A stretch of DNA of 20,667 nt from Candidatus Rifleibacteriota bacterium (GTDB taxonomy: Bacteria > Muiribacteriota > Ozemobacteria > Ozemobacterales > Ozemobacteraceae). The notes beneath the pieces are model-generated. The model searched no databases and was not told the DNA's origin. It worked only from the letters and a program-made list of their open reading frames with translations. The position numbers were made by a program, and so were the translations under genes. This document shows positions 2,755-17,412 of this stretch, one piece after another (the first letter of the stretch is position 1; every line of letters starts with the position of its first letter). The DNA lies in the NCBI GenBank assembly GCA_905236675.1, contig CAJOND010000051.1, positions 1 to 20,667 on the forward strand. The letters run 5' to 3'.

Positions 2755-2782
2755 AAAAAAAAGAGCCGCGCTATGCGGCTCT
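2755..2782 (-). terminator. Rho-independent terminator for the convergent minus-strand gene (may also act weakly for ClC)
   Basis: Stem agagccgc/gcggctct (8 bp, loop gctat) preceded on + by A8, which is a U-run after the hairpin on the minus strand. Confidence 0.6.
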
Positions 2783-2872: not shown

Positions 2873-4168
2873 TCAGATAATTGATACAGTTATTTTAGTA
2901 TCAACGTTTTTAACAATATTATCATCATCCTGACCCTTTATAGAGTTAAGAATCATTTCTTTGAACAGATCCATAATATGATTTTTTCGTTTAAAGGCTT
3001 CTACATATAAATTATTATCAGAATTATTGCTAGCTAATTTAATTTCAACTTCCGGATTTTCTTCAGAAACTGTAGAATCTGTTGCTACCACTACATTTGA
3101 AGCATCAGAAGAGTTGGAAGATCCATTGTTTGTAGAACTACTAGAACTTGCTGTAGCAATGCTTTTACTTGAAGAATCACCTATTTCAACACCTGTTGAA
3201 GCCACTCCAGTAGTAGCATTCCCTTTGGTGTCAACCATCTTCAAACCACCTGCTGCTGTAGTTTCTATTTCAGAACTCTTTATAATAGATAGGTTTCTAC
3301 CTGCATATCTATTTGTATTAAGACTTGTTCCAATTCCATAAGAATAATTTGAAGTTCCACCAAGCAATGCAGCTAATTGAGTATTAGCAGCATCTATAGC
3401 TGAATAACCTGCCAAACTAGAAGAATTAGAATAGTTAGTCATAGAAGAAGTCAAGCTCGAAAGTAAGCTGGATGCTAAAGAATTTCCTGAACCTCCCAAA
3501 AGGCTTGAAGAGCTTAATAAGCTTGAATTACTTAATAAATTCGAGTAATCGGTTAGCGAGTTCCCTAATAAATTAGAAGAACCGAGAAGAGTAGAATTTA
3601 AACCGCTGACTGATGATTTTAAAGCGAGAAACATATTATCTAAGTAAGAACTTATATAGCTTTTTAGTTCTTCGGTCTGTGAAGAAATCATATCATCAGT
3701 TTTCTTCATATATGCAGTTAAAAGATTTTCGTTGTGAGATTTGTCCGCTCTTAGTGCGTCTGCAAAAGCCAATGTTGTATCTCTGAATTTTCCGCCCATG
3801 ACATGACCTACTTCAGTAGTAATGCGAGTGCTGATTTTAATAAACATTGTGAAGCAGGAACCGGCAGTAAGTTTTTCTTCTTCTGTAGCTTCGCTATCAT
3901 CTGCTTCGTCCAATTCAGAAACAGCGGAAGAAGCTTCCAATTCTTCGACTTCCTCAGTTTCATCAACACTTTCTTCAATATGTTGATTACCACAGCAGCA
4001 GACATGTTCTGGTCTTTTGCCATTACAGTTTCTAAGAGCCTGTAACATAACAGAATCAAAATCTTCAGTAGTATTTTCAGTAGGATTGTTTGCCGAAACA
4101 GAACTAGAATTTTGAGTAGTAAGGCCTGAAGTTACCATATTGCTATTTAATTCATTTATTGTGGACAT
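2873..4168 (-). CDS. Hypothetical 431-aa protein: N-terminal Ser/Thr/Asn-rich segment, HVCCCGNQH cysteine cluster, poly-acidic (E/D) stretch, central putative folded region, long Ser/Leu/Asn/Gly low-complexity repeats (LLGSSNLLGNS...), no signal peptide
   Basis: The ORF track gives 2873..4258 using a TTG start. An ATG at 4168 with a perfect AAGGAGG SD 6 nt upstream is the likely real start (MSTINELNS...). No family recognised by eye. Confidence 0.6.
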   Translation of the reverse strand: MSTINELNSNMVTSGLTTQNSSSVSANNPTENTTEDFDSVMLQALRNCNGKRPEHVCCCGNQHIEESVDETEEVEELEASSAVSELDEADDSEATEEEKLTAGSCFTMFIKISTRITTEVGHVMGGKFRDTTLAFADALRADKSHNENLLTAYMKKTDDMISSQTEELKSYISSYLDNMFLALKSSVSGLNSTLLGSSNLLGNSLTDYSNLLSNSSLLSSSSLLGGSGNSLASSLLSSLTSSMTNYSNSSSLAGYSAIDAANTQLAALLGGTSNYSYGIGTSLNTNRYAGRNLSIIKSSEIETTAAGGLKMVDTKGNATTGVASTGVEIGDSSSKSIATASSSSSTNNGSSNSSDASNVVVATDSTVSEENPEVEIKLASNNSDNNLYVEAFKRKNHIMDLFKEMILNSIKGQDDDNIVKNVDTKITVSII

Positions 4169-4182
4169 ATCTGCCTCCTTAT

Positions 4183-4317
4183 TTATCTTTCTATATTTAT
4201 CTGAACTAAGCGTTCTGGGAAGAACACTGTAGTGAATAGAGGTTTCGAGACGAACCAAACAATGCCGTCATAGAGATCGTTAGTTTTTATTTTGTTTGCT
4301 TTATTTATATTTTTCAT
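4183..4317 (-). CDS. Candidate 44-codon upstream ORF / leader peptide (MKNINKANKIKTNDLYDGIVWFVSKPLFTTVFFPERLVQINIER)
   Basis: ATG at 4317 with an AAGGAG SD 9 nt upstream. Its TAA stop (4183-4185) sits 3 nt before the AAGGAGG SD of the 431-aa gene. Not in the ORF track (below its length cutoff). It could be a chance ORF in AT-rich DNA. Confidence 0.2.
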   Translation of the reverse strand: MKNINKANKIKTNDLYDGIVWFVSKPLFTTVFFPERLVQINIER

Positions 4318-4577
4318 TTAGGTTTGCTCCTTAATTTTTCAGGCCAAGAGGGGGCTTATCCGATTCGTCTTAGTCCTCATAGTATATCCTTCGGTGAATC
4401 AAATACGAAATTACAAGATGATTTTAGGAGATTATAGCTATTTTTAATAAAAATACTGCTAATTTCTTAAAATTTCTGTTAAATTTCACTACTTTATATT
4501 TTTTTAATTATTTTTATATTTTTTGTTCACGAAAAAATATATTGTGAAAAGTCAAAACTTTAGATTAGAATAATCTT

Positions 4578-4838
4578 ATGTGGATAGTAATACTTAATTT
4601 TTGTCTCTTCGTTCTGTTAATCGGATTCATGTTCTATGGTTTGAGTAAATGGACAAAACTTATAACTGAATATAATGATGGCAGCGAAGAACAAACAAAT
4701 GAATCCAAAGAAACCGATTCAGATTCTTTTAATAACGTAGTAGATGCAACATATTACAGGCTTCCATTATGGTTCTTGTTTGTAGGTATTGGAATTAGCC
4801 AGATAATATCTTTAATACAGTATCTGTTAGGTTATTAA
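4578..4838 (+). CDS. Small hypothetical membrane protein (two predicted TM helices flanking an acidic linker)
   Basis: ORF track. Hydrophobic N- and C-terminal segments. No clear SD. Ends 20 nt upstream of the peptidase gene. Confidence 0.4.
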   Translation: MWIVILNFCLFVLLIGFMFYGLSKWTKLITEYNDGSEEQTNESKETDSDSFNNVVDATYYRLPLWFLFVGIGISQIISLIQYLLGY

Positions 4839-6846: not shown

Positions 6847-7407
6847 CTATCCCTTCAAAATTTCTATGACTTTCTCATTTTTTTGTGAAATAGCCAAATC
6901 TAAAGGGGTTTGACCATCAACACTTTTAATTGTTGGGTCACAACCTGCTTTTAATAAAACTTTCACTGCTTCTGGATGATTCTGCTGTGCAGCCAGGTGA
7001 AGTGGGGTCCAACCGTCATTATCACCTAGATTCAATTCTATATCATAATTCAGAAGCTGATTTATTACCGGAACACAACCTCTAAAACCTGCCCAGTGCA
7101 AAGGAGTCCAACCGTCTCTTTCAATCTTTCGAGGGTCTGCCCCATGAGCCAATAAAATAGCAAAAGTTTCCGGCTTTTCTCTAGCAGCAGTAAGATGTAA
7201 AGGAGATACCCCATCCATATTTAAAGCGTCAACTTCAGCCCCTTTTTCTAATAGCAAATTTGTTGCTTTAACCATACCAAGCTTAGAAGCAAGATGCAGA
7301 GGAGTAACTCCTGTAGGATCTTTTTCCATAACATTTTCACCCGAGTTTATTAATTCAACAGCAAGATTTTCATCATTTTTATTTAAAGCTTCTAATAGTT
7401 TATTCAT
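6847..7407 (-). CDS. Ankyrin-repeat protein (about 5 ANK repeats)
   Basis: Repeated TPLH(L/W)A...G....V..LL..GA(D/E) units (TPLHLASKLG, SPLHLTAARE, TPLHWAGFRG, TPLHLAAQQN, TPLDLAISQK). AAGGAG SD 7 nt before the ATG. Confidence 0.85.
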   Translation of the reverse strand: MNKLLEALNKNDENLAVELINSGENVMEKDPTGVTPLHLASKLGMVKATNLLLEKGAEVDALNMDGVSPLHLTAAREKPETFAILLAHGADPRKIERDGWTPLHWAGFRGCVPVINQLLNYDIELNLGDNDGWTPLHLAAQQNHPEAVKVLLKAGCDPTIKSVDGQTPLDLAISQKNEKVIEILKG

Positions 7408-8884: not shown

Positions 8885-9748
8885 ATGAAAAAAGCCGTTA
8901 AAAGAATTTTCCTTTTCATAATGCTTCTATGTTGCTGTATAGTTTTCACTGGCTGTGGTGGTAATAGCAACAGTTATGATGATGCTGATGTTAGTAATTT
9001 GCATATTACTGTTTACAATAACGTTATTAATACCGAAACAAATTCTTATTCAACAAGAGCTTCTATCAACAATAGCGATTTAAGATTGTTCTTTAATGAT
9101 ATAGAGTTTCAAGGCCATAGTTCTGATAGCGAAAATAATTATGTTTTCACTAATGTAATGTATACCTCTAAAGCCTATGAAATGACTAATGCAGATGCTT
9201 CTTCAACAATTATTATAGCTTTAACTACTGGAGAAACATTATATAAAATAGAATTTGCCAACATAGATTTACCAGTAAATTTATCTATTAGATCAGAAAA
9301 TGGCAAAATAGTCATGTATAACGGAGCTAATCCTGTTCATATTCTTAAAGTTAATGATAAAACTGATGGTTATACAGATTTAACTGAAGTTATAGAAGTA
9401 AAAATTGAAAAATACAATAGCACAACTGCTAAAGTAACTTTTTATAATGTATTAAAACAAGGAATTAAGCTTGATTATACTTATTGGAAAATTTCAGCAT
9501 TAAATTCTGAATTAGATCCTATCGAATCATGGACAAACGAAGAAAATTCTTCCTCTACAAAACTAAATATTTCTAAGCCACAAGGAACAGATAATTATTA
9601 TCTCATATCACTGACAGAATCAGGTCTAGCATCAGCTCATTCTCACAATCTTGCCAATACAATTGTCGGAATAGACTACATCACAGATTCTAATCACAAA
9701 GATTTGGTTTCCACATATGTATTAAGACAAGGCATATATAGACCTTAA
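8885..9748 (+). CDS. Hypothetical lipoprotein (lipobox FTGC)
   Basis: MKKAVKRIFLFIMLLCCCIVFTG|CGG signal peptide with lipobox; Asn/Ser/Thr-rich mature protein. Confidence 0.65.
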   Translation: MKKAVKRIFLFIMLLCCCIVFTGCGGNSNSYDDADVSNLHITVYNNVINTETNSYSTRASINNSDLRLFFNDIEFQGHSSDSENNYVFTNVMYTSKAYEMTNADASSTIIIALTTGETLYKIEFANIDLPVNLSIRSENGKIVMYNGANPVHILKVNDKTDGYTDLTEVIEVKIEKYNSTTAKVTFYNVLKQGIKLDYTYWKISALNSELDPIESWTNEENSSSTKLNISKPQGTDNYYLISLTESGLASAHSHNLANTIVGIDYITDSNHKDLVSTYVLRQGIYRP

Positions 9749-9918: not shown

Positions 9919-10377
9919 GTGTACATGATTCAAATAGAAGACGTATTACAACAGAATGGAACAGTTTCATTATCTAAGGCTGCTTTGCTATGCAGTATGA
10001 TAGACAACGAACTTGATGACGAGTTAGTTGAACATCTGAAAAAGCACAATATCTATGCTGTAATAACCAGAGCCGGAGGTTGTGGAGATAACCTGAAAGG
10101 TAAAATTCTCCGCAATACTTTTGGAGCTGCTGAAAATAGCGGTTTGTTAACCATCAACATGAAAAACCGACATGTTATTACTTCATTGGTAGAAGGTGTT
10201 CTTTCTTCCTTTGACAGTTCTCTTATGAGCGTTTCTGGCGGAGGTTTAAAAATAGGTTTGGCAGTCCGTGATAATGATATTGCTATGGGAATCTATGGAA
10301 GTATAGGACTTCCTGGTCTAGATGTTGACCATGAGATTTCAGCTTGTCGTATTCTCTATCATTGTCTGGAGGACTAA
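9919..10377 (+). CDS. Hypothetical 152-aa protein, first gene of the PTS operon (Gly-rich motifs AGGCGDNLKGK and VSGGGLKIG)
   Basis: ORF track (GTG at 9919; alternative ATG at 9925). Its stop is 3 nt before EIIA. No family recognised. Confidence 0.5.
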   Translation: MYMIQIEDVLQQNGTVSLSKAALLCSMIDNELDDELVEHLKKHNIYAVITRAGGCGDNLKGKILRNTFGAAENSGLLTINMKNRHVITSLVEGVLSSFDSSLMSVSGGGLKIGLAVRDNDIAMGIYGSIGLPGLDVDHEISACRILYHCLED

Positions 10378-10380
10378 AAC

Positions 10381-10797
10381 GTGATAGGAATAGTAGTTGT
10401 TTCTCACGGTCTTCTTTCGGAACATTTAGTATCAGCTGCTTCTCTTATATTAGGAGAAACTAAAAATATCAAAGCTGTTACTTTTATGGCGAGAGAATCC
10501 TTAGAAGATTTACGCAAAAAAACAACTGATGCTGCTAATGAGTTTACAGACGATGGTTGTATTATTTTCACCGATATAATGGGTGGAAGTGCCACTAATG
10601 TCAGTATAGAAATCATGAAGAGTCGTAATGATGTCTATGTAGTTACAGGTGTTAATCTTCCAATGCTTATTGAAGCTATTAATAGCCGTGAAAATACTAG
10701 TTTGAAAGATTTGGCAAACCAAGTTTCAAACTCAGGCGTAAGAAGTATTATTAATTTAAAAGAATATTTTGAAAAAAGAGCAGCAAAACGAGTATGA
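10381..10797 (+). CDS. PTS mannose/fructose/sorbose-family EIIA component
   Basis: MIGIVVVSHGLLSEHL... aligns with the EIIA-Man N-terminus (conserved His in VSHG) and the VTGVNLPML region. GTG start with a GGAGG SD 8 nt upstream. Confidence 0.8.
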   Translation: MIGIVVVSHGLLSEHLVSAASLILGETKNIKAVTFMARESLEDLRKKTTDAANEFTDDGCIIFTDIMGGSATNVSIEIMKSRNDVYVVTGVNLPMLIEAINSRENTSLKDLANQVSNSGVRSIINLKEYFEKRAAKRV

Positions 10798-11255
10798 CAA
10801 ATATTGCATTTTTAAGAATAGATGATAGACTAGTTCATGGTCAGGTTATAGTCGGTTGGCTACCCGAAATAAAGCCTGAAAACCTTGTTGTTGTAAACGA
10901 TAGCGTAGCTGAAGATTCAATGCGCCAAGATCTTATGTCTTTAAGCGTTCCGCCTGATGTAGATCTGGAATTCTTTTCCACTTCTGACATTTCAGACGAA
11001 GATGTTGGCGAAAGTTCTTTTGTTTTAGTTTCTTCCCCTAAGGATGCTTGGGAATGTCTACAGAAAGATATTAAACCATTACGTTTTAATGTCGGTGGTA
11101 TGCATTCTAAAGACGGCAAGGAAGAAATATTTGAGGCATTACACGTTGATGATGAAGATCGAAAATATTTTGATTTAATCATCAAATCTGGTGTTGAACC
11201 TATTTTTCAACCAACTCCACAAAATCAACCCATGCCATTGGGTGGTATTCTGTAA
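10794..11255 (+). CDS. PTS mannose-family EIIB component
   Basis: LRIDDRLVHGQV signature of EIIB-Man (phospho-His). ATGA overlap with EIIA. Confidence 0.85.
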   Translation: MTNIAFLRIDDRLVHGQVIVGWLPEIKPENLVVVNDSVAEDSMRQDLMSLSVPPDVDLEFFSTSDISDEDVGESSFVLVSSPKDAWECLQKDIKPLRFNVGGMHSKDGKEEIFEALHVDDEDRKYFDLIIKSGVEPIFQPTPQNQPMPLGGIL

Positions 11256-11269
11256 AGCGAGGACAAAAC

Positions 11270-12388
11270 ATGGCTTCAATTACTTTCAGCAAAGTAGTGA
11301 AACAGTATGAAGGGGCAAAAGAACCTACTGTTAAGGGGATTGACCTTTTCATCAAAGACAAAGAGTTTGTCGTTCTTGTTGGTGGTTCAGGATGTGGTAA
11401 AAGTACAAGCTTACGTATGATTGCCGGTCTTGAAGACATAACTGGCGGCGAAATCAAAATTGGTGATACAGTTGTAAACAATTTGCCACCAAAAGATCGT
11501 GATATTGCTATGGTTTTTCAGAACTATGCTCTCTATCCGCATATGACTGTTAGAGAAAACCTTTCTTTTGGTTTAAAACTTCGCAAACTTCCACAAGACG
11601 AAATCGACAAACGTGTTGATGAAGCTGCAAAAATGCTTGAAATTTCTGATTATCTTGAAAGACTACCAAAACAGCTTTCAGGTGGTCAGCGTCAGCGTGT
11701 TGCATTAGGTAGAACTATAGTTCGTGAACCAAAGGTCTTCCTTATGGACGAACCATTATCTAACCTTGATGCTAAATTGCGTGTTCAAATGCGTGCCGTT
11801 ATTAAAAAGCTTCATCAGCGATTAAAAACAACCTTTGTCTATGTTACACATGATCAGGTTGAAGCAATGACAATGGCTGACCGTATTGTTATTCTCCATC
11901 AGGGAATTATCCAGCAATACGATATTCCTTCTGTTATCTATGAAAAGCCAGCTAACGTATTTGTTGCACAATTTATCGGTTCACCGCCAATGAATGTTAT
12001 GAAAGTCAAGAAAACCGATAAAGGATTGACTTTATTACCTGGCACTGGTTCTGACAAAAATATCGACTGGGAAATCAAACTTTCAGATTATTTCAAAGAT
12101 GATTTCGAAGATGATATGTCTATAGGAATAAGACCTGAACATTTATTGATTGATAAACAAGCCGAAGGTGTTCCTTGTCTAAAAGTTCCTTGTAAAGTAG
12201 ATTTGATTGAACCTATGGGAGCAGAAACCTATCTATACTTAGATTGTAACGGTTTGAGCCTCAACGCTAAGGTTCCACCTACAATTAAGCCCGAAGTTGG
12301 CGATAGCGTTGTTGCAAATATCCCAATAGAAAAGTTCCATCTCTTTAAGCAGTCAGATACAACAAGAATTGGACGCAAAGGCGAATAA
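11270..12388 (+). CDS. Sugar ABC transporter ATP-binding protein, MalK/UgpC/MsmX type (with C-terminal TOBE-like domain)
   Basis: Walker A GGSGCGKST, signature LSGGQRQRVALGR, Walker B FLMDEPLSNLDAKLR, H-loop YVTHDQ; about 130-aa C-terminal extension typical of MalK. Confidence 0.85.
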   Translation: MASITFSKVVKQYEGAKEPTVKGIDLFIKDKEFVVLVGGSGCGKSTSLRMIAGLEDITGGEIKIGDTVVNNLPPKDRDIAMVFQNYALYPHMTVRENLSFGLKLRKLPQDEIDKRVDEAAKMLEISDYLERLPKQLSGGQRQRVALGRTIVREPKVFLMDEPLSNLDAKLRVQMRAVIKKLHQRLKTTFVYVTHDQVEAMTMADRIVILHQGIIQQYDIPSVIYEKPANVFVAQFIGSPPMNVMKVKKTDKGLTLLPGTGSDKNIDWEIKLSDYFKDDFEDDMSIGIRPEHLLIDKQAEGVPCLKVPCKVDLIEPMGAETYLYLDCNGLSLNAKVPPTIKPEVGDSVVANIPIEKFHLFKQSDTTRIGRKGE

Positions 12389-12405
12389 TTCATGAACTAA
12401 ATTAG

Positions 12406-12441
12406 ACTCTCCTCGTAATACTTTATTGCGAGGAGAGTTTT
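12406..12441 (+). terminator. Intra-operon terminator-like hairpin (10-bp stem, 13-nt loop, TTTT)
   Basis: actctcctcg...cgaggagagt followed by TTTT, between the ABC ATPase and the SBP gene. Confidence 0.45.
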
Positions 12442-12475
12442 ACTAATTACCTTAAATCTTCGTGGTAAATCGATA

Positions 12476-13756
12476 ATGAATAAAGCTTTAAAAACTTTTC
12501 CAAAGATTTTATTTATTTTAGGCTCTTTTGTCCTAGTATTAATTCTAGGCTGTTGTGACTCTACTTCAAATTCCACAGACAATAATTCTTCTGGTGCAAA
12601 AATAGTTCTAGAATTTTGGAACACAATGGAAGGTAGAGAAGCCGCAGTAATGCCAGATGTTTTTAAGGCTTTCAACGAAAAATATCCTAACATCACTATT
12701 AAAGAAACTACTATCGATTTTTATGAATGCAAGGATAACTTTATTAAAGCTTCATCAGAAGGCAAAGCACCAGATTTAATAAGAACCGATAGATTCTGGC
12801 TAGCCTCTTTCGTTAGCAAAGGTCTTCTTAATGAAATAAAAGAAAATGAAATTACAGAAGAACTTGCCGATATGGTTCCAGTCGCAAGAGATTTTGTTAC
12901 ATTAGATAAAAAAATATGGGCAATTCCATTGTCTGTAGACAGTTTGGCAATGTTTTACAACAAAGCCCATTTCAGAGAAAAATCACTTCACACTCCCAAA
13001 GATTTTGATGAATTTTCAAAAGCCTGTGAAAAACTGACTGATCCAGCCAACAACAGATACGGATTTTTTATCTACCCTAACGGCTGGTATTTTGAACCTT
13101 TTTTCTTTGGCTTTGGTGGTCAATATTTCGATGAAAATGGAAAGCTTTATATCAAATCAGATGCTGGGAAAAAAGCATTAGAATTTCTTATGCACTTAAA
13201 ATCAGAAATTAAAGCTGTTCCTCCAATACCATATACAAATAAACTTTATGGCACTATGATCAAAAGTTTTTCAAGCGGTCAAACAAGCATAATATTTACA
13301 GGCCCCTGGGCAATTCGAGATATTATTGCAGGAAGTGCTTTTAAAGATAATAATTCTAATCTTGGTGTAGAACAAATTCCAGCTGGTCCAAGAGGAACAT
13401 TTTCTCCCATTGGCTGCCAGTCAATTGCTATTTCAAGTAAGACAAAACATAGAGATGCCGCTTTAAAGTTTGCTAAATTTATGTTTGATTACGAAATACA
13501 AAAGAATTTTACAATGGCAAATTATGGGCTCCCTGCAAGAAGAAAAGTATTTGCCGCTCCAGAATTAAAACAGGATCCATATCTGCAAACATTTATTAGA
13601 CAGCTTCAAATGAGTTGTAAAGCTTATACTCATCCTGATCAGGGTGATATTTATGCTCCGTTGGGCGACAAAATAATAAAAGTTCTTAACGGTGATTTAA
13701 CTATCGAGTATGCTCTGTCAGATGTTGAATCAGAATGGGGAGCGACACACCATTGA
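12476..13756 (+). CDS. Extracellular solute-binding lipoprotein, family 1 (CUT1 sugar ABC type)
   Basis: Signal peptide with lipobox ILGC|CDS; N-terminal region ...KIVLEFWNTMEG...PDV...APDLIRTD..W...GLL resembles MalE/MsmE-type SBPs. Confidence 0.7.
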   Translation: MNKALKTFPKILFILGSFVLVLILGCCDSTSNSTDNNSSGAKIVLEFWNTMEGREAAVMPDVFKAFNEKYPNITIKETTIDFYECKDNFIKASSEGKAPDLIRTDRFWLASFVSKGLLNEIKENEITEELADMVPVARDFVTLDKKIWAIPLSVDSLAMFYNKAHFREKSLHTPKDFDEFSKACEKLTDPANNRYGFFIYPNGWYFEPFFFGFGGQYFDENGKLYIKSDAGKKALEFLMHLKSEIKAVPPIPYTNKLYGTMIKSFSSGQTSIIFTGPWAIRDIIAGSAFKDNNSNLGVEQIPAGPRGTFSPIGCQSIAISSKTKHRDAALKFAKFMFDYEIQKNFTMANYGLPARRKVFAAPELKQDPYLQTFIRQLQMSCKAYTHPDQGDIYAPLGDKIIKVLNGDLTIEYALSDVESEWGATHH

Positions 13757-13770
13757 TTTGGTAACTTTTA

Positions 13771-14604
13771 ATGGAACACCTAAACCTATCTCTTATTGTT
13801 GCATTATTAGGCGGTATAGTTGATTTAGATTCAACCGCCGCAGTACAATGCATGATTTCACAGCCAATAGTCGCTGCTCCTTTAACAGGTCTAATTGTTG
13901 GCTCAATGCTAGATGATTCATCATCAGGTCTGACCCTTGGTTTGATGATTGGTTTAATCCTCCAGCTTACTTGGATAGAACAACTTCCTCTAGGAATGAA
14001 CGTTCCTCCTGACGCAGCTTTAGCTTCTGTTTTATCTGTTGCATTAGGTTTTTGTGCAGGTCATGAATTTGATTATGCAAAGAGAGAAGCTTGCTACACT
14101 ATTGGATTATTGGTTTCTGTTGCCTTGGGATTGATTGGTAGAAGTCTGGATATGTTTGTCCGACGATTAAACACCAGTATTGATTCTTGGGTTAATTTGC
14201 AAATAGAAGACAATAAATTTAACTCAATCATATTTGGTCATATAAGTGGTGGTTTTATAACCTTTATTAAGGCATTTATTTTTTGTTTTCTTGTTATATG
14301 GTTTGGAGTTGAACCTCTTAAAACTTTTACTAGTCTTATGAGTGTTTTTCATTGTGGCGGTTTTGTTGTCTTACAAGGTCTTTTACCTGCCGTAGGATTT
14401 TCAGTTCTTGCCAGCATGTATTTAAAAACAAAAAAAGAAACTATATATTTTGCAGCTGCTATTATCGGATTTACTCTAATTAATGCTTTTATTAATATAG
14501 AATCTTATTTTTATATAACTATAGCTTTATTAATTTCCCTTATAACTATGTGTATAACGGGCTATACGTCTACAAAAACCAGATCGAAGAGAGGTAAGAA
14601 ATGA
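13771..14604 (+). CDS. PTS mannose-family EIIC component
   Basis: Aligns by eye with ManY: ...QPIVAAPLTGLIVGS...PPDAALASV... Polytopic. Confidence 0.8.
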   Translation: MEHLNLSLIVALLGGIVDLDSTAAVQCMISQPIVAAPLTGLIVGSMLDDSSSGLTLGLMIGLILQLTWIEQLPLGMNVPPDAALASVLSVALGFCAGHEFDYAKREACYTIGLLVSVALGLIGRSLDMFVRRLNTSIDSWVNLQIEDNKFNSIIFGHISGGFITFIKAFIFCFLVIWFGVEPLKTFTSLMSVFHCGGFVVLQGLLPAVGFSVLASMYLKTKKETIYFAAAIIGFTLINAFINIESYFYITIALLISLITMCITGYTSTKTRSKRGKK

Positions 14605-15428
14605 CCTTATCGAAATGGTTGTTATTTAAAGTAGCTTTAAGAAGCTTCCTGCTTCAAGCATCATGGAATTACCGAGGCATGATGAGCATGGGGTTTCTTT
14701 ATTCTATAGCCCCTGGACTAGACCACATTTATGAAGATAAAAATGAAAGAGAATTGGCCTATATGCGTCATTTCGAGTATTTTAATACTAATCCCTATTT
14801 TTCTTCTATTGTAATGGGGGTAACCTTGTCGTTAGAAGAAAAATATAAAAATGGAGATAATAAAGTAGATCCTGAAATAATTCATAATACCAAAGAAGCT
14901 CTTATGACCTCTCTTGCAGCAATTGGTGACGGTTTTTTCTGGGATAGCTGGAGACCATTTGTAGCTGTTTTTGCAATAGTTTTTGCCGCAGCAAATTATA
15001 GCTTTGTTCCTTTTCTCTTCTTAATCTTATATAACTTACCTCATCTGTATTTCAGATTTGCAGGAATATATTGGGGATATGAAGATGGAATGAATGTTAT
15101 CCGCAAATTAAAAGGGTTCAAAATTCCTCAAATTCGACAAACGTTAAGAATGGGAACCCTAGTTTTATTAGCCTATCTTATTCCTAATAATGTCAGTGTT
15201 AAAACACCTTTTTACATAAAAGTTATGGAATATATACAAGATTTGTCAGCAAAAAAAATATCGTTGGAATATGGTATTTTTTTTAATAAAATAGTTCAAG
15301 GGGTAATTGCATTATTACTAGTTTCTTTAGGCACATTTGCTTATAGAAAAAAAGTAAATGTTTTATTAATCTCTTTTCTTCTTCTAATTTTAGCCCTAAT
15401 GTTTTATCATTGGGGTATATTTATTTAA
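14601..15428 (+). CDS. PTS mannose-family EIID component
   Basis: LLQASWNYRGMMSMGF...RHFEYFNTNPYFSSIVMGVTLSLEE aligns with ManZ (LFQGSWNFERMQALGF...RHLEFFNTQP...GVTLALEE). ATGA overlap with EIIC. Confidence 0.85.
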   Translation: MTLSKWLLFKVALRSFLLQASWNYRGMMSMGFLYSIAPGLDHIYEDKNERELAYMRHFEYFNTNPYFSSIVMGVTLSLEEKYKNGDNKVDPEIIHNTKEALMTSLAAIGDGFFWDSWRPFVAVFAIVFAAANYSFVPFLFLILYNLPHLYFRFAGIYWGYEDGMNVIRKLKGFKIPQIRQTLRMGTLVLLAYLIPNNVSVKTPFYIKVMEYIQDLSAKKISLEYGIFFNKIVQGVIALLLVSLGTFAYRKKVNVLLISFLLLILALMFYHWGIFI

Positions 15429-15438
15429 GGACCTGAGA

Positions 15439-15711
15439 ATGAAACGAAAAGAAGTCGAAATTAAAAACAAACTTGGGTTACACGCTAGACCAGCATCACT
15501 GCTTGTGAAACTGGCTAGTAAATATTCTTCTGAAATCGATTTGATAAAAGAAGATACTGAAGTTAATGCCAAAAGTATTCTTGGTGTTATGATGCTTGCG
15601 GCTGGACCTGGTCAAAGACTTACTATCACTGCAGAAGGAGCCGATGAAGTAGAAGCTGTAGAAGCTTTGGCTGCTCTTATCGATAGTGGATTCGGTGAGG
15701 AATTAGTATAA
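15439..15711 (+). CDS. ptsH: Phosphocarrier protein HPr
   Basis: GLHARPA with His15 and a conserved KSILGV Ser46 region; 90 aa. Confidence 0.9.
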   Translation: MKRKEVEIKNKLGLHARPASLLVKLASKYSSEIDLIKEDTEVNAKSILGVMMLAAGPGQRLTITAEGADEVEAVEALAALIDSGFGEELV

Positions 15712-17412
15712 ATGAGTATAAAATTGCAAAATCAATGCTTTGAAACAGGCATTATTGGTTCTTCAGGAACCTCTGTCGCTCGTTGCTATGTTTTCCAAAA
15801 ACGCATAGAAGTAGAGCGACGTTCCATTACAGAAGAACAAATAGCTGATGAAATAAAAAGACTTGATTTTGCAATTAAAAAGACTGCTGACGACATACAA
15901 AACTTCCGCAAAAGAGCAGAAGAACGTCACGGTGAAAAATATGCCGCAATATTTGATTCCCACTTATTAATGCTAGAAGACCCTCAATTTAAGCCCAAAT
16001 TAATCGCACGAATGGAAAAAGATAAAATAAATATTGAAAGTGCGGTTAGGGAACGAATAGATGAAATTCATAAAAGTTTTTCAGCTATCGCAGACCCTTA
16101 TTTACGAGAAAGGGCCATAGACATAAAAGATGTTGGCGATAGACTATTACGACATTTATTAGGTTTGGAAGAACCTGGAGACGATATAGACAATAAACCC
16201 TATATACTTATTGCTCAAGAAGTAACCCCAAGCGAATTGTTAAATTTTACTCGAGGTGAACTTAGAGGAATATGCTTAGATACTGGTGGAGCTACTTCTC
16301 ATGTTGCAATTCTTTCTGACGCATTAGGTATTCCTTCTATATTCGGATTAAATGATTTCTCCGAAAAGGTTTCTACAGGCGATATTTTACTTATGGATAC
16401 CAGAACAACTCCCAAAATAATAGTCAATCCCAAATCAGATGTAATAATTGCCTTTGAAGATAGCTTAGAAAAAAACAATTTTTCATCAAAAAAATCAGAA
16501 ACTACTGCAGATGGAATAGAATTACATATAGGAGCTAATGTAGCCCGAGTCGAAGAAATACCCGTATTGCAAAAACTTTGTGTTAAAAATATCAGCCTTT
16601 TCAGAAGTGAATTTGTTTTTATGGAAAGTCTTGACTCTCCGTCAGAAAAATACCAGACCGAAGTCTATACCCAGTTAGTAAAAGGAGTTACAGGAACAGT
16701 TGTTTTAAGAACCTTAGATGTAGGTTCAGATAAACCATTAAAATACCTGCCTTTAAACGATGAAAATAATCCTGCCATGGGCTTTAGGTCGGTCAGATTT
16801 TCTATTTCCAGACCAGATGTTTTAGAACCCCAATTAAGAGCAATGATTAATGCAGCACAGCACGGAAATGTTAAAATAATATTCCCAATGGTTTCTGTTC
16901 CATCTGAATTAAAAAAGATTTCCGAATTATTTAATAAAGTTGTCGATGAATTAAAGCCCCAAAAGGTTCCTGAATGGGGAATAATGCTTGAAGTTCCATC
17001 GGCTGTTTTTATGCTTGAAGAAATATCAAAATATACAAAATACATTAGTCTTGGAACAAATGATCTGGTTCAGTTTTTCTTTGCAATAGACAGAACCAAT
17101 GAAAAATTGTCGGGCTATGCAGATTATTTATCTATGCCATTCTTAAAATTTTTAGAACAATGTGTAAATGAAGCAAATAGGCTTGGAATAGAAATTGGAG
17201 TCTGTGGCGAAATGGCTTCTGATCAAGCTGGTTTCGTTGCACTTTTAGGTCTGGGGATACAAAGTTTTGGTATGAGACCAGCAGTAATTGAAAAAATGAG
17301 AGAACTAATTCCAAATTTAAATAAAAAGAACATAAAAGGTTTTATCAAAAATATTATGAAACGTAACGAACAGATTAATGTCAGACAATTAATCGAATTA
17401 ACATATTTATAA
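15712..17412 (+). CDS. ptsI: PTS Enzyme I (phosphoenolpyruvate-protein phosphotransferase)
   Basis: 566 aa; GGATSHVAIL phospho-His motif; C-terminal PEP-utilizing domain with GVCGEMA; lies immediately after ptsH. Confidence 0.9.
   Translation: MSIKLQNQCFETGIIGSSGTSVARCYVFQKRIEVERRSITEEQIADEIKRLDFAIKKTADDIQNFRKRAEERHGEKYAAIFDSHLLMLEDPQFKPKLIARMEKDKINIESAVRERIDEIHKSFSAIADPYLRERAIDIKDVGDRLLRHLLGLEEPGDDIDNKPYILIAQEVTPSELLNFTRGELRGICLDTGGATSHVAILSDALGIPSIFGLNDFSEKVSTGDILLMDTRTTPKIIVNPKSDVIIAFEDSLEKNNFSSKKSETTADGIELHIGANVARVEEIPVLQKLCVKNISLFRSEFVFMESLDSPSEKYQTEVYTQLVKGVTGTVVLRTLDVGSDKPLKYLPLNDENNPAMGFRSVRFSISRPDVLEPQLRAMINAAQHGNVKIIFPMVSVPSELKKISELFNKVVDELKPQKVPEWGIMLEVPSAVFMLEEISKYTKYISLGTNDLVQFFFAIDRTNEKLSGYADYLSMPFLKFLEQCVNEANRLGIEIGVCGEMASDQAGFVALLGLGIQSFGMRPAVIEKMRELIPNLNKKNIKGFIKNIMKRNEQINVRQLIELTYL

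Follow-up and report, generated by a model that had tools for sequence, protein, structure and literature searches.

A conserved leader, a micro-ORF and a gene for an acidic modular protein form a fixed unit in the candidate phylum Riflebacteria

A two-site arrangement for CsrA is known from the hag mRNA of Bacillus subtilis. As to proteins of novel type, the FESNov study placed Riflebacteria first among phyla in the density of novel families, 26 of which were considered to be putatively synapomorphic (PMC10849945). Given that no phylum is reported to carry a higher load of unknown gene families (PMC10849945), the encounter with yet another unknown protein in this group comes as less of a surprise. 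Riflebacteria are uncultured bacteria, common in the rumen, gut, digesters and aquifers. The present study considers a stretch of 20,667 nucleotides from a Candidatus Rifleibacteriota bacterium (GenBank assembly GCA_905236675.1, contig CAJOND010000051.1, positions 1 to 20,667; the whole of this stretch is referred to below as the window) and, within it, a gene on the minus strand at positions 2873-4168 that encodes an acidic protein of 431 residues, termed here the target protein. This gene occupies the distal position in a fixed unit of three parts, namely a leader, a micro-open reading frame (micro-ORF) and the gene itself. As far as public data show, the protein family appears to be confined to the candidate phylum Riflebacteria (Rifleibacteriota), and it may be one of the 26 Riflebacteria synapomorphic families of FESNov. 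No account of the target protein, or of gut-clade motility, was found in the literature on Riflebacteria, Ozemobacter and Rifleibacterium.

The gene, the micro-ORF and their shared leader

A first-pass annotation, made without database searches, had described the ORF at 2873-4168 as a gene with a strong Shine-Dalgarno (SD) sequence of its own, convergent with a ClC channel gene. All of this was borne out. Read on the minus strand from an ATG at 4168-4166 to a TGA at 2875-2873, the ORF comprises 431 codons plus a stop and is preceded by AAGGAGG at 4180-4174, with the ATG being found 5 nt further on. The ClC gene occupies positions 1462-2745, and a strong intrinsic terminator (2762-2782, minus strand), comprising an 8-bp stem with six G-C pairs and a T-run, lies between it and the target gene. 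The ORF is a genuine gene under purifying selection, given its 28 close homologues, sharing 45-100% identity, and ratios of non-synonymous to synonymous differences (pN/pS) of 0.11-0.29 in the conserved modules of the protein. These ratios were determined segment by segment from a codon-level comparison of 12 orthologous genes in which synonymous sites are near saturation (pS 0.5-0.8).

Directly upstream of the target gene lie a micro-ORF and a leader, both of which had been overlooked in the first-pass annotation. The micro-ORF (4183-4317, minus strand) encodes 44 residues (MKNINKANKIKTNDLYDGIVWFVSKPLFTTVFFPERLVQINIER) followed by a stop codon and has an SD of its own, AAGGAG, at 4332-4327; it is the first cistron of the operon, with the target gene being the second. 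In both clades of the family, every locus examined has an orthologous ORF, 39-44 codons long, ahead of the family gene. Because the differences between the window and locus L001 across the conserved core of the micro-ORF are synonymous third-position changes, the micro-ORF is apparently translated. It is thus a coding sequence, and it forms a Riflebacteria-restricted family in its own right. A profile search with the micro-protein returned 22 clusters, all of 40-44 residues, with nearly all of the labelled members coming from Rifleibacteria. These peptides are basic at the N-terminus, carry the motif EP-φφ-K-x-V in their center and end in E/G-R. The possibility that the micro-protein serves as a SpoVM-like amphipathic membrane anchor was rejected, its hydrophobic moment being no better than those of shuffled sequences.

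The 14-nt gap between the two cistrons (4169-4182, minus strand) holds the SD of the target gene. Within this gap, 'ATAAGGAGGCAGATATG' is identical across nearly all close-clade loci. The length of the gap is 13-22 nt at nearly all loci, reaching 25-26 nt in L001 and 44 nt in L083. The arrangement of gap and SD suggests translational coupling of the micro-ORF and the target gene. The leader, the micro-ORF and the gene were found together at all 24 non-redundant loci for which the upstream region is available, including those of the distant clade and Candidatus Rifleibacterium amylolyticum.

The leader (4318-4381, minus strand) is a nearly invariant 5' segment of about 60 nt, …GAG GACTAAGACGAATCGGATAAGCCCCCTCTTGGCCTGAAAAATTAAGGAGCAAACCTAA (also written GAG-GACTAAGACGAATCGGATAAGCCCCCTCTTGGCCTGAAAAATTAAGGAGCAAACC), as revealed in alignments A3 and A4. 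Present at all family loci with upstream sequence, it is almost invariant throughout the phylum, even where the proteins share only ~20% identity. A metagenome scan for the 17-mer GACTAAGACGAATNGGA gave 88 matches, 18 of which contained the extended block. Wherever the contig extended far enough, each of these 18 was followed by a micro-ORF and a family member, and the remaining 70 matches, with their unrelated flanks, are chance matches. Since the scan detected the extended block only there, the leader appears to be exclusive to this operon.

Searches for structure in the leader were uniformly negative. Rfam 15 contained no match at gathering thresholds and returned only noise at E<=10, while RNAalifold detected 0 compensatory pairs. 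For 20 non-redundant leaders considered with ViennaRNA and an all-pairs scan, the consensus energy was -1.9 kcal/mol, the minimum free energy folds clashed between clades and no contiguous helix covaried. With neither an Rfam match nor a supported helix, a riboswitch or other structured RNA was rejected, as was a likeness to the guanidine-III motif (GGAC-AAGACG), for which Rfam provided no backing. What is conserved in the leader is its sequence and not a structure, which points to recognition by a protein, the ribosome or a small RNA (sRNA), rather than to a riboswitch-like fold. Two GGA boxes are conserved in the leader, namely AAU[CG]GGA[AU]A and AAGGAG, the latter corresponding to the SD of the micro-ORF, some 35 nt apart. 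A 13-codon ORF within the leader (4341-4382, minus strand; ATGAGGACT…TGA, also given as ATGAGGACTAAGACG…TGA) was also considered. It is probably no gene, its ATG being replaced by AAG or absent elsewhere.

In total, some 45 homologues of the target protein, given as 313-443 residues long, were found. These fall into a close clade from the gut and rumen, to which the window belongs, and a distant, environmental clade, with nearly all of the taxon-labelled members being assigned to Candidatus Riflebacteria/Rifleibacteriota. The 28 close homologues, recovered in a search of 5.8 billion proteins, are 286-443 residues long and all unannotated, and those that are named come from 'Candidatus Riflebacteria bacterium' metagenome-assembled genomes (MAGs). 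Members of the distant clade, at 313-410 residues, share ~20-24% identity with the window protein and, where labelled, are listed as Riflebacteria, 'Candidatus Rifleibacterium sp.' or 'Rifleibacteriota'. An exhaustive hidden Markov model search of 1.84 billion cluster representatives with the family profile yielded only 20 representatives, the distant clade among them. The GTDB species representatives that contain the family gene are goat abomasum and rumen MAGs. Three MAGs with other labels were found to hold the same operon, namely, two of Candidatus Avigastranaerophilus (Melainabacteria; L010 and L012, both GTDB representatives) and one of Erysipelotrichia (L103), the last of these also presenting the full environmental-clade synteny. 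Because these three carry the same operon, their labels are probably labelling or binning artefacts. No relatives were matched in phage and plasmid records, and a phage or plasmid origin was rejected. In the rumen MAG RUG334, the orthologue (L009, 1931-3097) is only 388 residues long, versus the usual ~435, and ends differently (…SEITAI). This short form is probably the outcome of a frameshift or an assembly error near the 3' end.

Constrained modules and drifting spacers in the target protein

The acidic, Ser/Asn/Leu-rich composition originally described for the target protein was confirmed, with a pI of 4.46 and S, L, N and T contributing 17.6%, 9.7%, 9.3% and 9.0% of residues, respectively; family-wide, the pI is uniformly acidic (4.3-4.9, with one member at 5.35). 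The reported lack of a signal peptide also held, and no transmembrane segment was detected, the maximum Kyte-Doolittle 19-residue mean being 0.88 and the N-terminus being polar. Low-entropy segments (residues 64-98, 188-252 and 331-362) account for 31% of the protein. When the whole protein, its segments and distant members were compared with Pfam, NCBIfam, PHROGs and the PDB in sequence and profile searches, nothing meaningful was obtained, nor did four isolated segments match Pfam at E<=10. This agrees with the earlier assessment that the protein is not enzyme-like and could be assigned to no family; it belongs to none so far described.

A mixed architecture had likewise been proposed, and it is upheld by the alignments (A1 for the close clade; A2 and A6 for both clades jointly), by pN/pS values and by AlphaFold2 modeling, all of which point to probably disordered acidic and S/T/N-rich spacers combined with conserved modules. 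Specifically, the protein consists of constrained modules alternating with two freely drifting spacers, one acidic and one S/T/N-rich. A search for homologues and length polymorphism, as had been recommended, located the length drift in these two spacers. In what follows, all coordinates refer to the minus strand.

Residues 1-46 (4031-4168) comprise a conserved extreme N-terminus, MS-x-I-N/D-E, a polar S/T/N stretch and a predicted short helix, F37-D-S-V-M-L-Q-A-L. Within the close clade, M1, S2, I4, T13 and F37 do not vary, with M1 and F37 being invariant across the family as well, and a helix at residues 37-47 was modeled, at low confidence, in both AlphaFold2 runs. Next comes the Cys motif, N-C-N-G-K-R-P-E-H-V-C-C-C-G (residues 47-60; 3989-4030), which is 14-15 residues long in the orthologues and shows the lowest pN/pS of all segments (0.11). 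The HVCCCGNQH cluster described earlier is indeed found here, with HVCCCG corresponding to residues 55-60. What had been taken for a metal-like CCC motif stands as a Cys cluster, but only a Cys pair is conserved family-wide, be it as CxxC, CC, CCC or CCCC. Across 46 members, the close clade presents CCC or CCCC and the distant clade mostly CxxC, while C57 and C59 are invariant in A2.

The predicted acidic stretch following the Cys cluster was recovered as a spacer with a net charge of -17 (residues 61-101; 3866-3988). Of low entropy, it varies between 37 and 51 residues, with a pN/pS of 0.73 and pLDDT (the per-residue AlphaFold2 confidence) <35. Because both length and sequence drift, this spacer is probably disordered. 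It is followed by a conserved core (residues 102-186; 3611-3865) of 80-85 residues and pN/pS 0.23 that begins with G-S-C-F-T-M-F-I-K-I-S and continues with long amphipathic helices; a hydrophobic period of 3.7, as for an amphipathic α-helix, was measured in residues 121-196. The core is the part common to both clades, with F106, S113, F128, T132 and L139 being invariant family-wide, and the best-matching stretches of the distant relatives fall mostly within profile positions ~20-270.

Residues 187-255 (3404-3610) form a Ser/Leu/Asn hexad-like repeat, xLLxxS, with a hydrophobic period of ~5.8 and a Leu lag-6 autocorrelation of p=0.027. The first-pass annotation had assigned about 150 residues to this repeat and had considered the underlying DNA as repetitive and as a candidate for slippage-mediated length variation. 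Neither claim survived closer scrutiny. The periodic part covers only ~65-70 residues, as residues 256-334 are conserved and non-repetitive, and Tandem Repeats Finder identified no more than one 2-copy 18-bp array and one 3-copy 9-bp array, with scores <=51, at 3503-3538. The length of the repeat module is held to 66-74 residues, many of its columns are invariant and its pN/pS is 0.29. With synonymous sites being near saturation, this value ranks the low-complexity module with the most strongly conserved regions of the protein. The module hardly varies within the gut/rumen clade, is absent or short in the distant clade and is an expansion, specific to the former clade, of a shorter Ser-rich segment. 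Such observations also bear on the possibility that the locus is a contingency locus, or a spurious low-complexity ORF, with a length that changes by slippage. The share of low-entropy protein and the small tandem arrays speak in its favor. Still, 28 full-length orthologues with conserved ends, the constrained length and pN/pS of the repeat and the near lack of tandem DNA effectively refute this explanation, which we regard as scarcely conceivable.

The next module (residues 256-334; 3167-3403) is Gly/Thr-rich and non-repetitive, contains AIDAANTQ, YGIGTSLNTNRYAGR, MVDTKGN and EIG, measures 76-81 residues and shows a pN/pS of 0.28, with invariant columns in A1. By contrast with these constrained modules, the S/T/N-rich spacer at residues 335-385 (3014-3166) varies from 40 to 58 residues, with an amino-acid identity of 0.33 and a pN/pS of 0.82. 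Finally, residues 386-431 (2876-3013) comprise a C-terminal helix, R-K-N-H-I-x-D-L-F-K-E-M-I, and a terminal strand of alternating hydrophobic residues, K-I-T-V-S-I-I. Invariant positions of the close clade here are A391, K395, I398, F402, M405 and S409; among these, F402 is also near-invariant family-wide (invariant in A2, >=90% in A6). A short hydrophobic C-terminus is common across the family, and in the environmental clade there is a C-terminal extension with a conserved acidic-hydrophobic end, EE[VI]x[AV].

AlphaFold2 returned mean pLDDT values of 41.0 with 26 sequences and 44.6, with a predicted template modeling score of 0.18, with 46 sequences. Only low-confidence helices were built, with the highest confidence, ~60-67, being reached in C-terminal residues 386-431. 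Tracts rich in S/T/N are common in these genomes, as seen from a neighboring lipoprotein-like protein of 379 residues (L008, 442-1581, minus strand; signal peptide followed by LTGCS) that contains ~150 residues of extreme Ser/Thr/Asn/Lys low complexity.

Transcription signals and genomic setting

A putative promoter region (4382-4426, minus strand) precedes the leader in the window. It contains a conserved CGA within ACCGAAGG (4395-4388) and a T-x-A-A-type box, TGTAATTT (4415-4408). Across loci, three elements are found at fixed distances from the leader, namely CTGAAA near -51, [CG]TT[AG]AA near -41 and CGA[AT], which is invariant, near -19. A σ70 promoter was rejected, as no site was found on the coding strand and the consensus scored 8.25 versus 7.98±0.16 in shuffled sequences, at inconsistent positions; a σ54 promoter was rejected by eye. 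Judging by these scores, the promoter is not σ70-like. The σ28 consensus TAAAGTTT-N11/12-GCCGATAA (canonical form, TAAA-N15-GCCGATAA) gave a mean best score over all loci of 10.5/16 versus 9.16±0.18 for shuffles, a difference with a z-score inflated by the relatedness of the sequences. In the environmental clade, most loci have a σ28-type match of 10-12/16 in one and the same place (with L006 scoring lower), as exemplified by TAAATTTG-N12-GTCGATTA at 12/16, and the form TAAAnTTn-N12-GnCGATnA is seen at -38/-18 from the leader in L018, L021, L061, L083, L093, L102 and L103. The spacer of the σ28-type site is 1 nt longer than the canonical one, and an extracytoplasmic function (ECF) geometry (TGTAAT/TTGAAx … CGA) fits equally well. 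A σ28 regulon in the phylum is possible.

Such a promoter raises the question of whether the target protein is a late σ28-dependent member of a flagellar regulon, that is, a phylum-specific export substrate, regulator or accessory protein with an N-terminal export signal and a leader under the control of a CsrA/FliW-type circuit. The upstream region matches the σ28 consensus above shuffles, which the σ70 consensus does not, and the two GGA boxes, one of them on an SD, resemble the CsrA two-site arrangement of B. subtilis hag mRNA. Like flagellar type III substrates and regulators (FlgM, FliK, FlgK/L, FlgD, FliD and flagellin), the target protein lacks a Sec signal and has a polar, probably disordered and S/T/N-rich N-terminus, as well as an acidic pI, and the flagellar-associated FlgV is found in at least some members of the phylum. 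Neither its sequence nor its profile, by contrast, resembles that of any flagellar family. In addition to the lack of Pfam matches to its segments at E<=10, hhalign comparison of profiles A5 and A6 with proteins from annotated flagellar regions of E. coli K-12 (n=20, covering FlgM, FlgN, FlgB-G, FlgJ, FlgK, FlgL, FliC, FliD, FliE, FliH, FliJ, FliK, FliS, FliT and FliZ) gave probabilities of <=0.7%, equal to those of three unrelated controls. No flagellar gene was found within ±8-10 kb at any of the ~30 loci, and the σ28 match is weak in the clade of the window, where an ECF-type promoter is equally compatible. Moreover, the target protein is 3-4 times longer than FlgM, and the Cys pair or cluster conserved in its family is unusual in flagellar export substrates. 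As such, the resemblance to substrates of flagellar or type III-like export systems suggested by the first-pass annotation was not sustained by homology or gene neighborhood and survives only via the σ28-like promoter and the absence of a Sec signal. A flagellar role for the target protein is considered rather unlikely.

Examination of the genes surrounding the operon revealed the most common neighbor to be a class-I S-adenosylmethionine-dependent methyltransferase of ~283-324 residues, encoded directly downstream of the family gene at 19 of 27 loci (e.g., L001 11588-12439, L018 11407-12264 and L101 9231-10205). In the environmental clade, the methyltransferase gene is on the same strand and 120-240 nt away, while at most gut-clade loci it is convergent. 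The enzyme is generic, with all of its NCBIfam matches being far below curated cut-offs. The best of these is a daptide-type methyltransferase of pathways for peptides synthesized ribosomally and modified post-translationally (RiPP), at 42 bits versus 175. In the window, the methyltransferase gene is missing and the ClC gene is found in its place.

A second recurrent block contains genes for a Sel1 protein (159 residues), a protein of ~690-727 residues that has a hydrophobic segment at its N-terminal end, two N_methyl proteins of the prepilin type, a lipoprotein rich in Ser/Thr (~350-380 residues), an anti-σ factor (zf-HC2/FecR-like), an ECF σ factor and a HEAT_2 protein (~820 residues). It is found at 853-9533 in L001, 995-9559 in L002, 5621-9420 in L004 and 11836-20999 in L006, with the Sel1, ~690-residue and N_methyl protein genes being divergent and upstream of the operon in the close clade and located not far from it in the distant one. 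The block resembles a cluster of minor pseudopilins that has ECF regulation of its own. Since the methyltransferase gene and the Sel1/pseudopilin/ECF set are all absent from the window, where the unit is intact, none of these genes is an obligatory cis partner of the unit.

The same evidence bears on the proposal that the target protein is a partner or substrate of its neighbors, be it as a target of the methyltransferase, as part of a RiPP-like cluster with the micro-ORF encoding the precursor, or as a component of a Sel1/pseudopilin system related to type II secretion systems (T2SS) or type IV pili. The frequency and the daptide-type best match of the methyltransferase argue for this proposal, as does the presence of the Sel1, ~690-residue and two N_methyl proteins near the operon in both clades. 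However, the only enzyme nearby is that generic methyltransferase, convergent and not co-transcribed at most close-clade loci, and leader, micro-ORF and gene persist in the window without it or the Sel1/pseudopilin genes. No recognized RiPP enzyme was seen, and the micro-protein is conserved in its center phylum-wide, unlike RiPP cores. Finally, T2SS substrates need Sec or Tat signals, neither of which is found in the target protein. We consider such a partnership very doubtful.

A cytoplasmic regulator, such as an anti-sigma factor, an anti-adaptor or a redox or metal sensor, in which the Cys pair acts as a zinc site or thiol switch and which may be tied to the syntenic ECF σ/anti-σ pair, was similarly weighed. 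The Cys pair is the most constrained segment of the protein and invariant family-wide; genes for the ECF σ factor, the anti-σ factor and the HEAT protein recur within ~7-8 kb in both clades; the promoter geometry fits an ECF type; and, on general grounds, the EE[VI]x[AV] end of distant-clade members could represent a degron or a ligand of TPR/Sel1 proteins. Yet the zinc-binding anti-sigma motif, H-x3-C-x2-C, is absent, as only the Cys pair is conserved and the His is restricted to the close clade and wrongly spaced (H-V-C-C-C), and the target protein did not match Pfam zf-HC2/RsrA. It is also far larger and richer in low complexity than known anti-sigma domains and matches no family, the ECF σ factor is already adjoined by a dedicated anti-σ factor, and the ECF cluster is missing from the window. 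On balance, a role as regulator of this kind is quite unlikely.

In the window itself, the operon is accompanied by genes for ClC, an 86-residue ORF product, an M48 peptidase, an ankyrin protein, an SPFH/zinc-ribbon protein, HutP and a mannose-type phosphotransferase system (PTS), among others. The products of three ORFs on the plus strand, 130-1296, 4578-4838 and 8885-9748 (388, 86 and 287 residues, respectively), gave no significant Pfam or NCBIfam match, with the 287-residue product returning only weak lipoprotein-like N-terminal matches. The region at 9919-17412 (plus strand) encodes a HutP-like regulator, mannose-type PTS IIA and IIB, an ATP-binding cassette (ABC) ATPase (MalK-like), a solute-binding protein, PTS IIC and IID, HPr and Enzyme I, such that ABC components are interleaved among PTS genes, an unusual arrangement. 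Ankyrin-repeat proteins recur, with one of 186 residues being encoded in the window (6847-7407, minus strand) and others of 528-670 residues in L001 (17613-21252) and L004 (13622-15310). An unannotated 430-residue neighbor in L004 was considered as a possible paralogue of the target protein and rejected, as no similarity was found. Upstream of the operon in the environmental clade (L005, L006, L018 and L101-L103), two tandem HAMP adenylate/guanylate cyclases of ~960-1020 residues are encoded, together with further dCache-cyclases, for a total of up to five cyclase genes per 20 kb.

Proposed role and comparison with known systems

The reading we tentatively favor, while holding it to be no more than a reasonable possibility, is that of a partly disordered, non-Sec protein with a role in assembly or as an adaptor, acting together with the micro-protein under tight post-transcriptional control. 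Synthesis would be driven by an alternative-sigma promoter, and a putative trans-acting factor, either a CsrA-like protein or an sRNA, would read the invariant GGA-containing leader and gate the SD of the micro-ORF. Target and micro-protein could then be made in the cytoplasm through coupled translation, a step proposed with low confidence. The target would serve as an oligomeric scaffold or adaptor, the conserved modules of which fold only upon assembly or partner binding, and this would account for the failure of AlphaFold2 to fold the monomer. A link mediated by a metal or a disulfide may be formed by the Cys pair, with the acidic spacers possibly serving as flexible tethers.

Several points weigh against this assembly-protein reading. 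The assignment as scaffold or adaptor is an argument from architecture and exclusion, and the poor AlphaFold2 models may merely reflect a shallow alignment. The GGA boxes of the leader lack the conserved hairpin that classical CsrA sites often have. As to the alternative-sigma promoter, the site in the clade of the window, TGTAATTT-N12-ACCGAAGG, is weak, scoring 9/16, about the mean of the shuffles, while the phylogenetic relatedness of the sequences in the shuffle test means that the z-score overstates significance. Lastly, the synteny with the methyltransferase (19/27 loci) and with the Sel1/pseudopilin genes, both lacking in the window, is not explained by a scaffold.

A broader and rather speculative proposal, which we would not expect to hold in full, is that the unit represents a phylum-defining module of a new kind. 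In such a module, a trans-acting factor would recognize the leader, a cis-regulatory element of a new class that would control the synthesis, in stoichiometric amounts, of the basic micro-protein together with an acidic assembly protein that folds conditionally. The latter would build a structure specific to Riflebacteria, possibly a novel part of the motility apparatus that depends on σ28. Whatever its role, the product of the target gene is likely to be central and lineage-specific, given that it is found phylum-wide, that its leader has remained almost unchanged while the protein diverged to ~20% identity and that it is locked to a micro-protein. The near-invariant yet structure-less leader, itself a candidate for a new regulatory element, and the obligatory micro-ORF are the unusual features of the locus. 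With its short operon, defined leader and two products small enough to express, the unit offers a tractable entry into the cell biology of Riflebacteria. Should the target turn out to be merely a disordered protein that is abundant but marginal in function, these findings would matter for annotation alone, with a 'hypothetical protein' becoming a defined family that has a micro-ORF overlooked by most gene callers.

As far as sequence and profile comparisons can tell, the protein, the micro-protein and the leader fit no known family, fold or RNA class. Their novelty is one by exclusion, with no new mechanism having been demonstrated. Each nonetheless shares features with described systems. Like leaders controlled by CsrA, such as that of B. 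subtilis hag, the leader described here is an unstructured, purine-rich 5' untranslated region with two GGA boxes, the second of which overlaps an SD; it differs in that no conserved hairpin presents a GGA and in that its invariant block extends far beyond the length of two CsrA sites. The Ser/Leu/Asn module recalls hexapeptide (left-handed β-helix) and pentapeptide repeat proteins in its hydrophobic period of ~5.8 and in units such as S-N-L-L-G-N and S-S-L-L-S-S. Unlike those proteins, it includes only ~10 units, does not match Pfam Hexapep or Pentapeptide at any threshold and is not built as a solenoid by AlphaFold2, which leaves it unstructured.

In terms of architecture, the target protein can be likened to PopZ, an acidic and partly disordered hub or scaffold protein, and to the SpoVM-SpoIVA pair of a micro-protein and a structural protein, with which it shares a short N-terminal helix, an acidic flexible linker, C-terminal helical modules and a co-encoded micro-protein of ~40 residues. 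This likeness is one of architecture only. There is no homology, the target is much larger and contains Ser/Leu repeats and a Cys pair, and its micro-protein lacks a significant amphipathic helix. At the level of gene families, the Riflebacteria example described in FESNov, found by pdp, dgt and mcp, appears to be another locus, and the leader and micro-ORF are not described there (PMC10849945). At the same time, the target family is much like the synapomorphic families defined in that study, being found in one uncultivated phylum, under purifying selection, in a conserved context and with no known domain.

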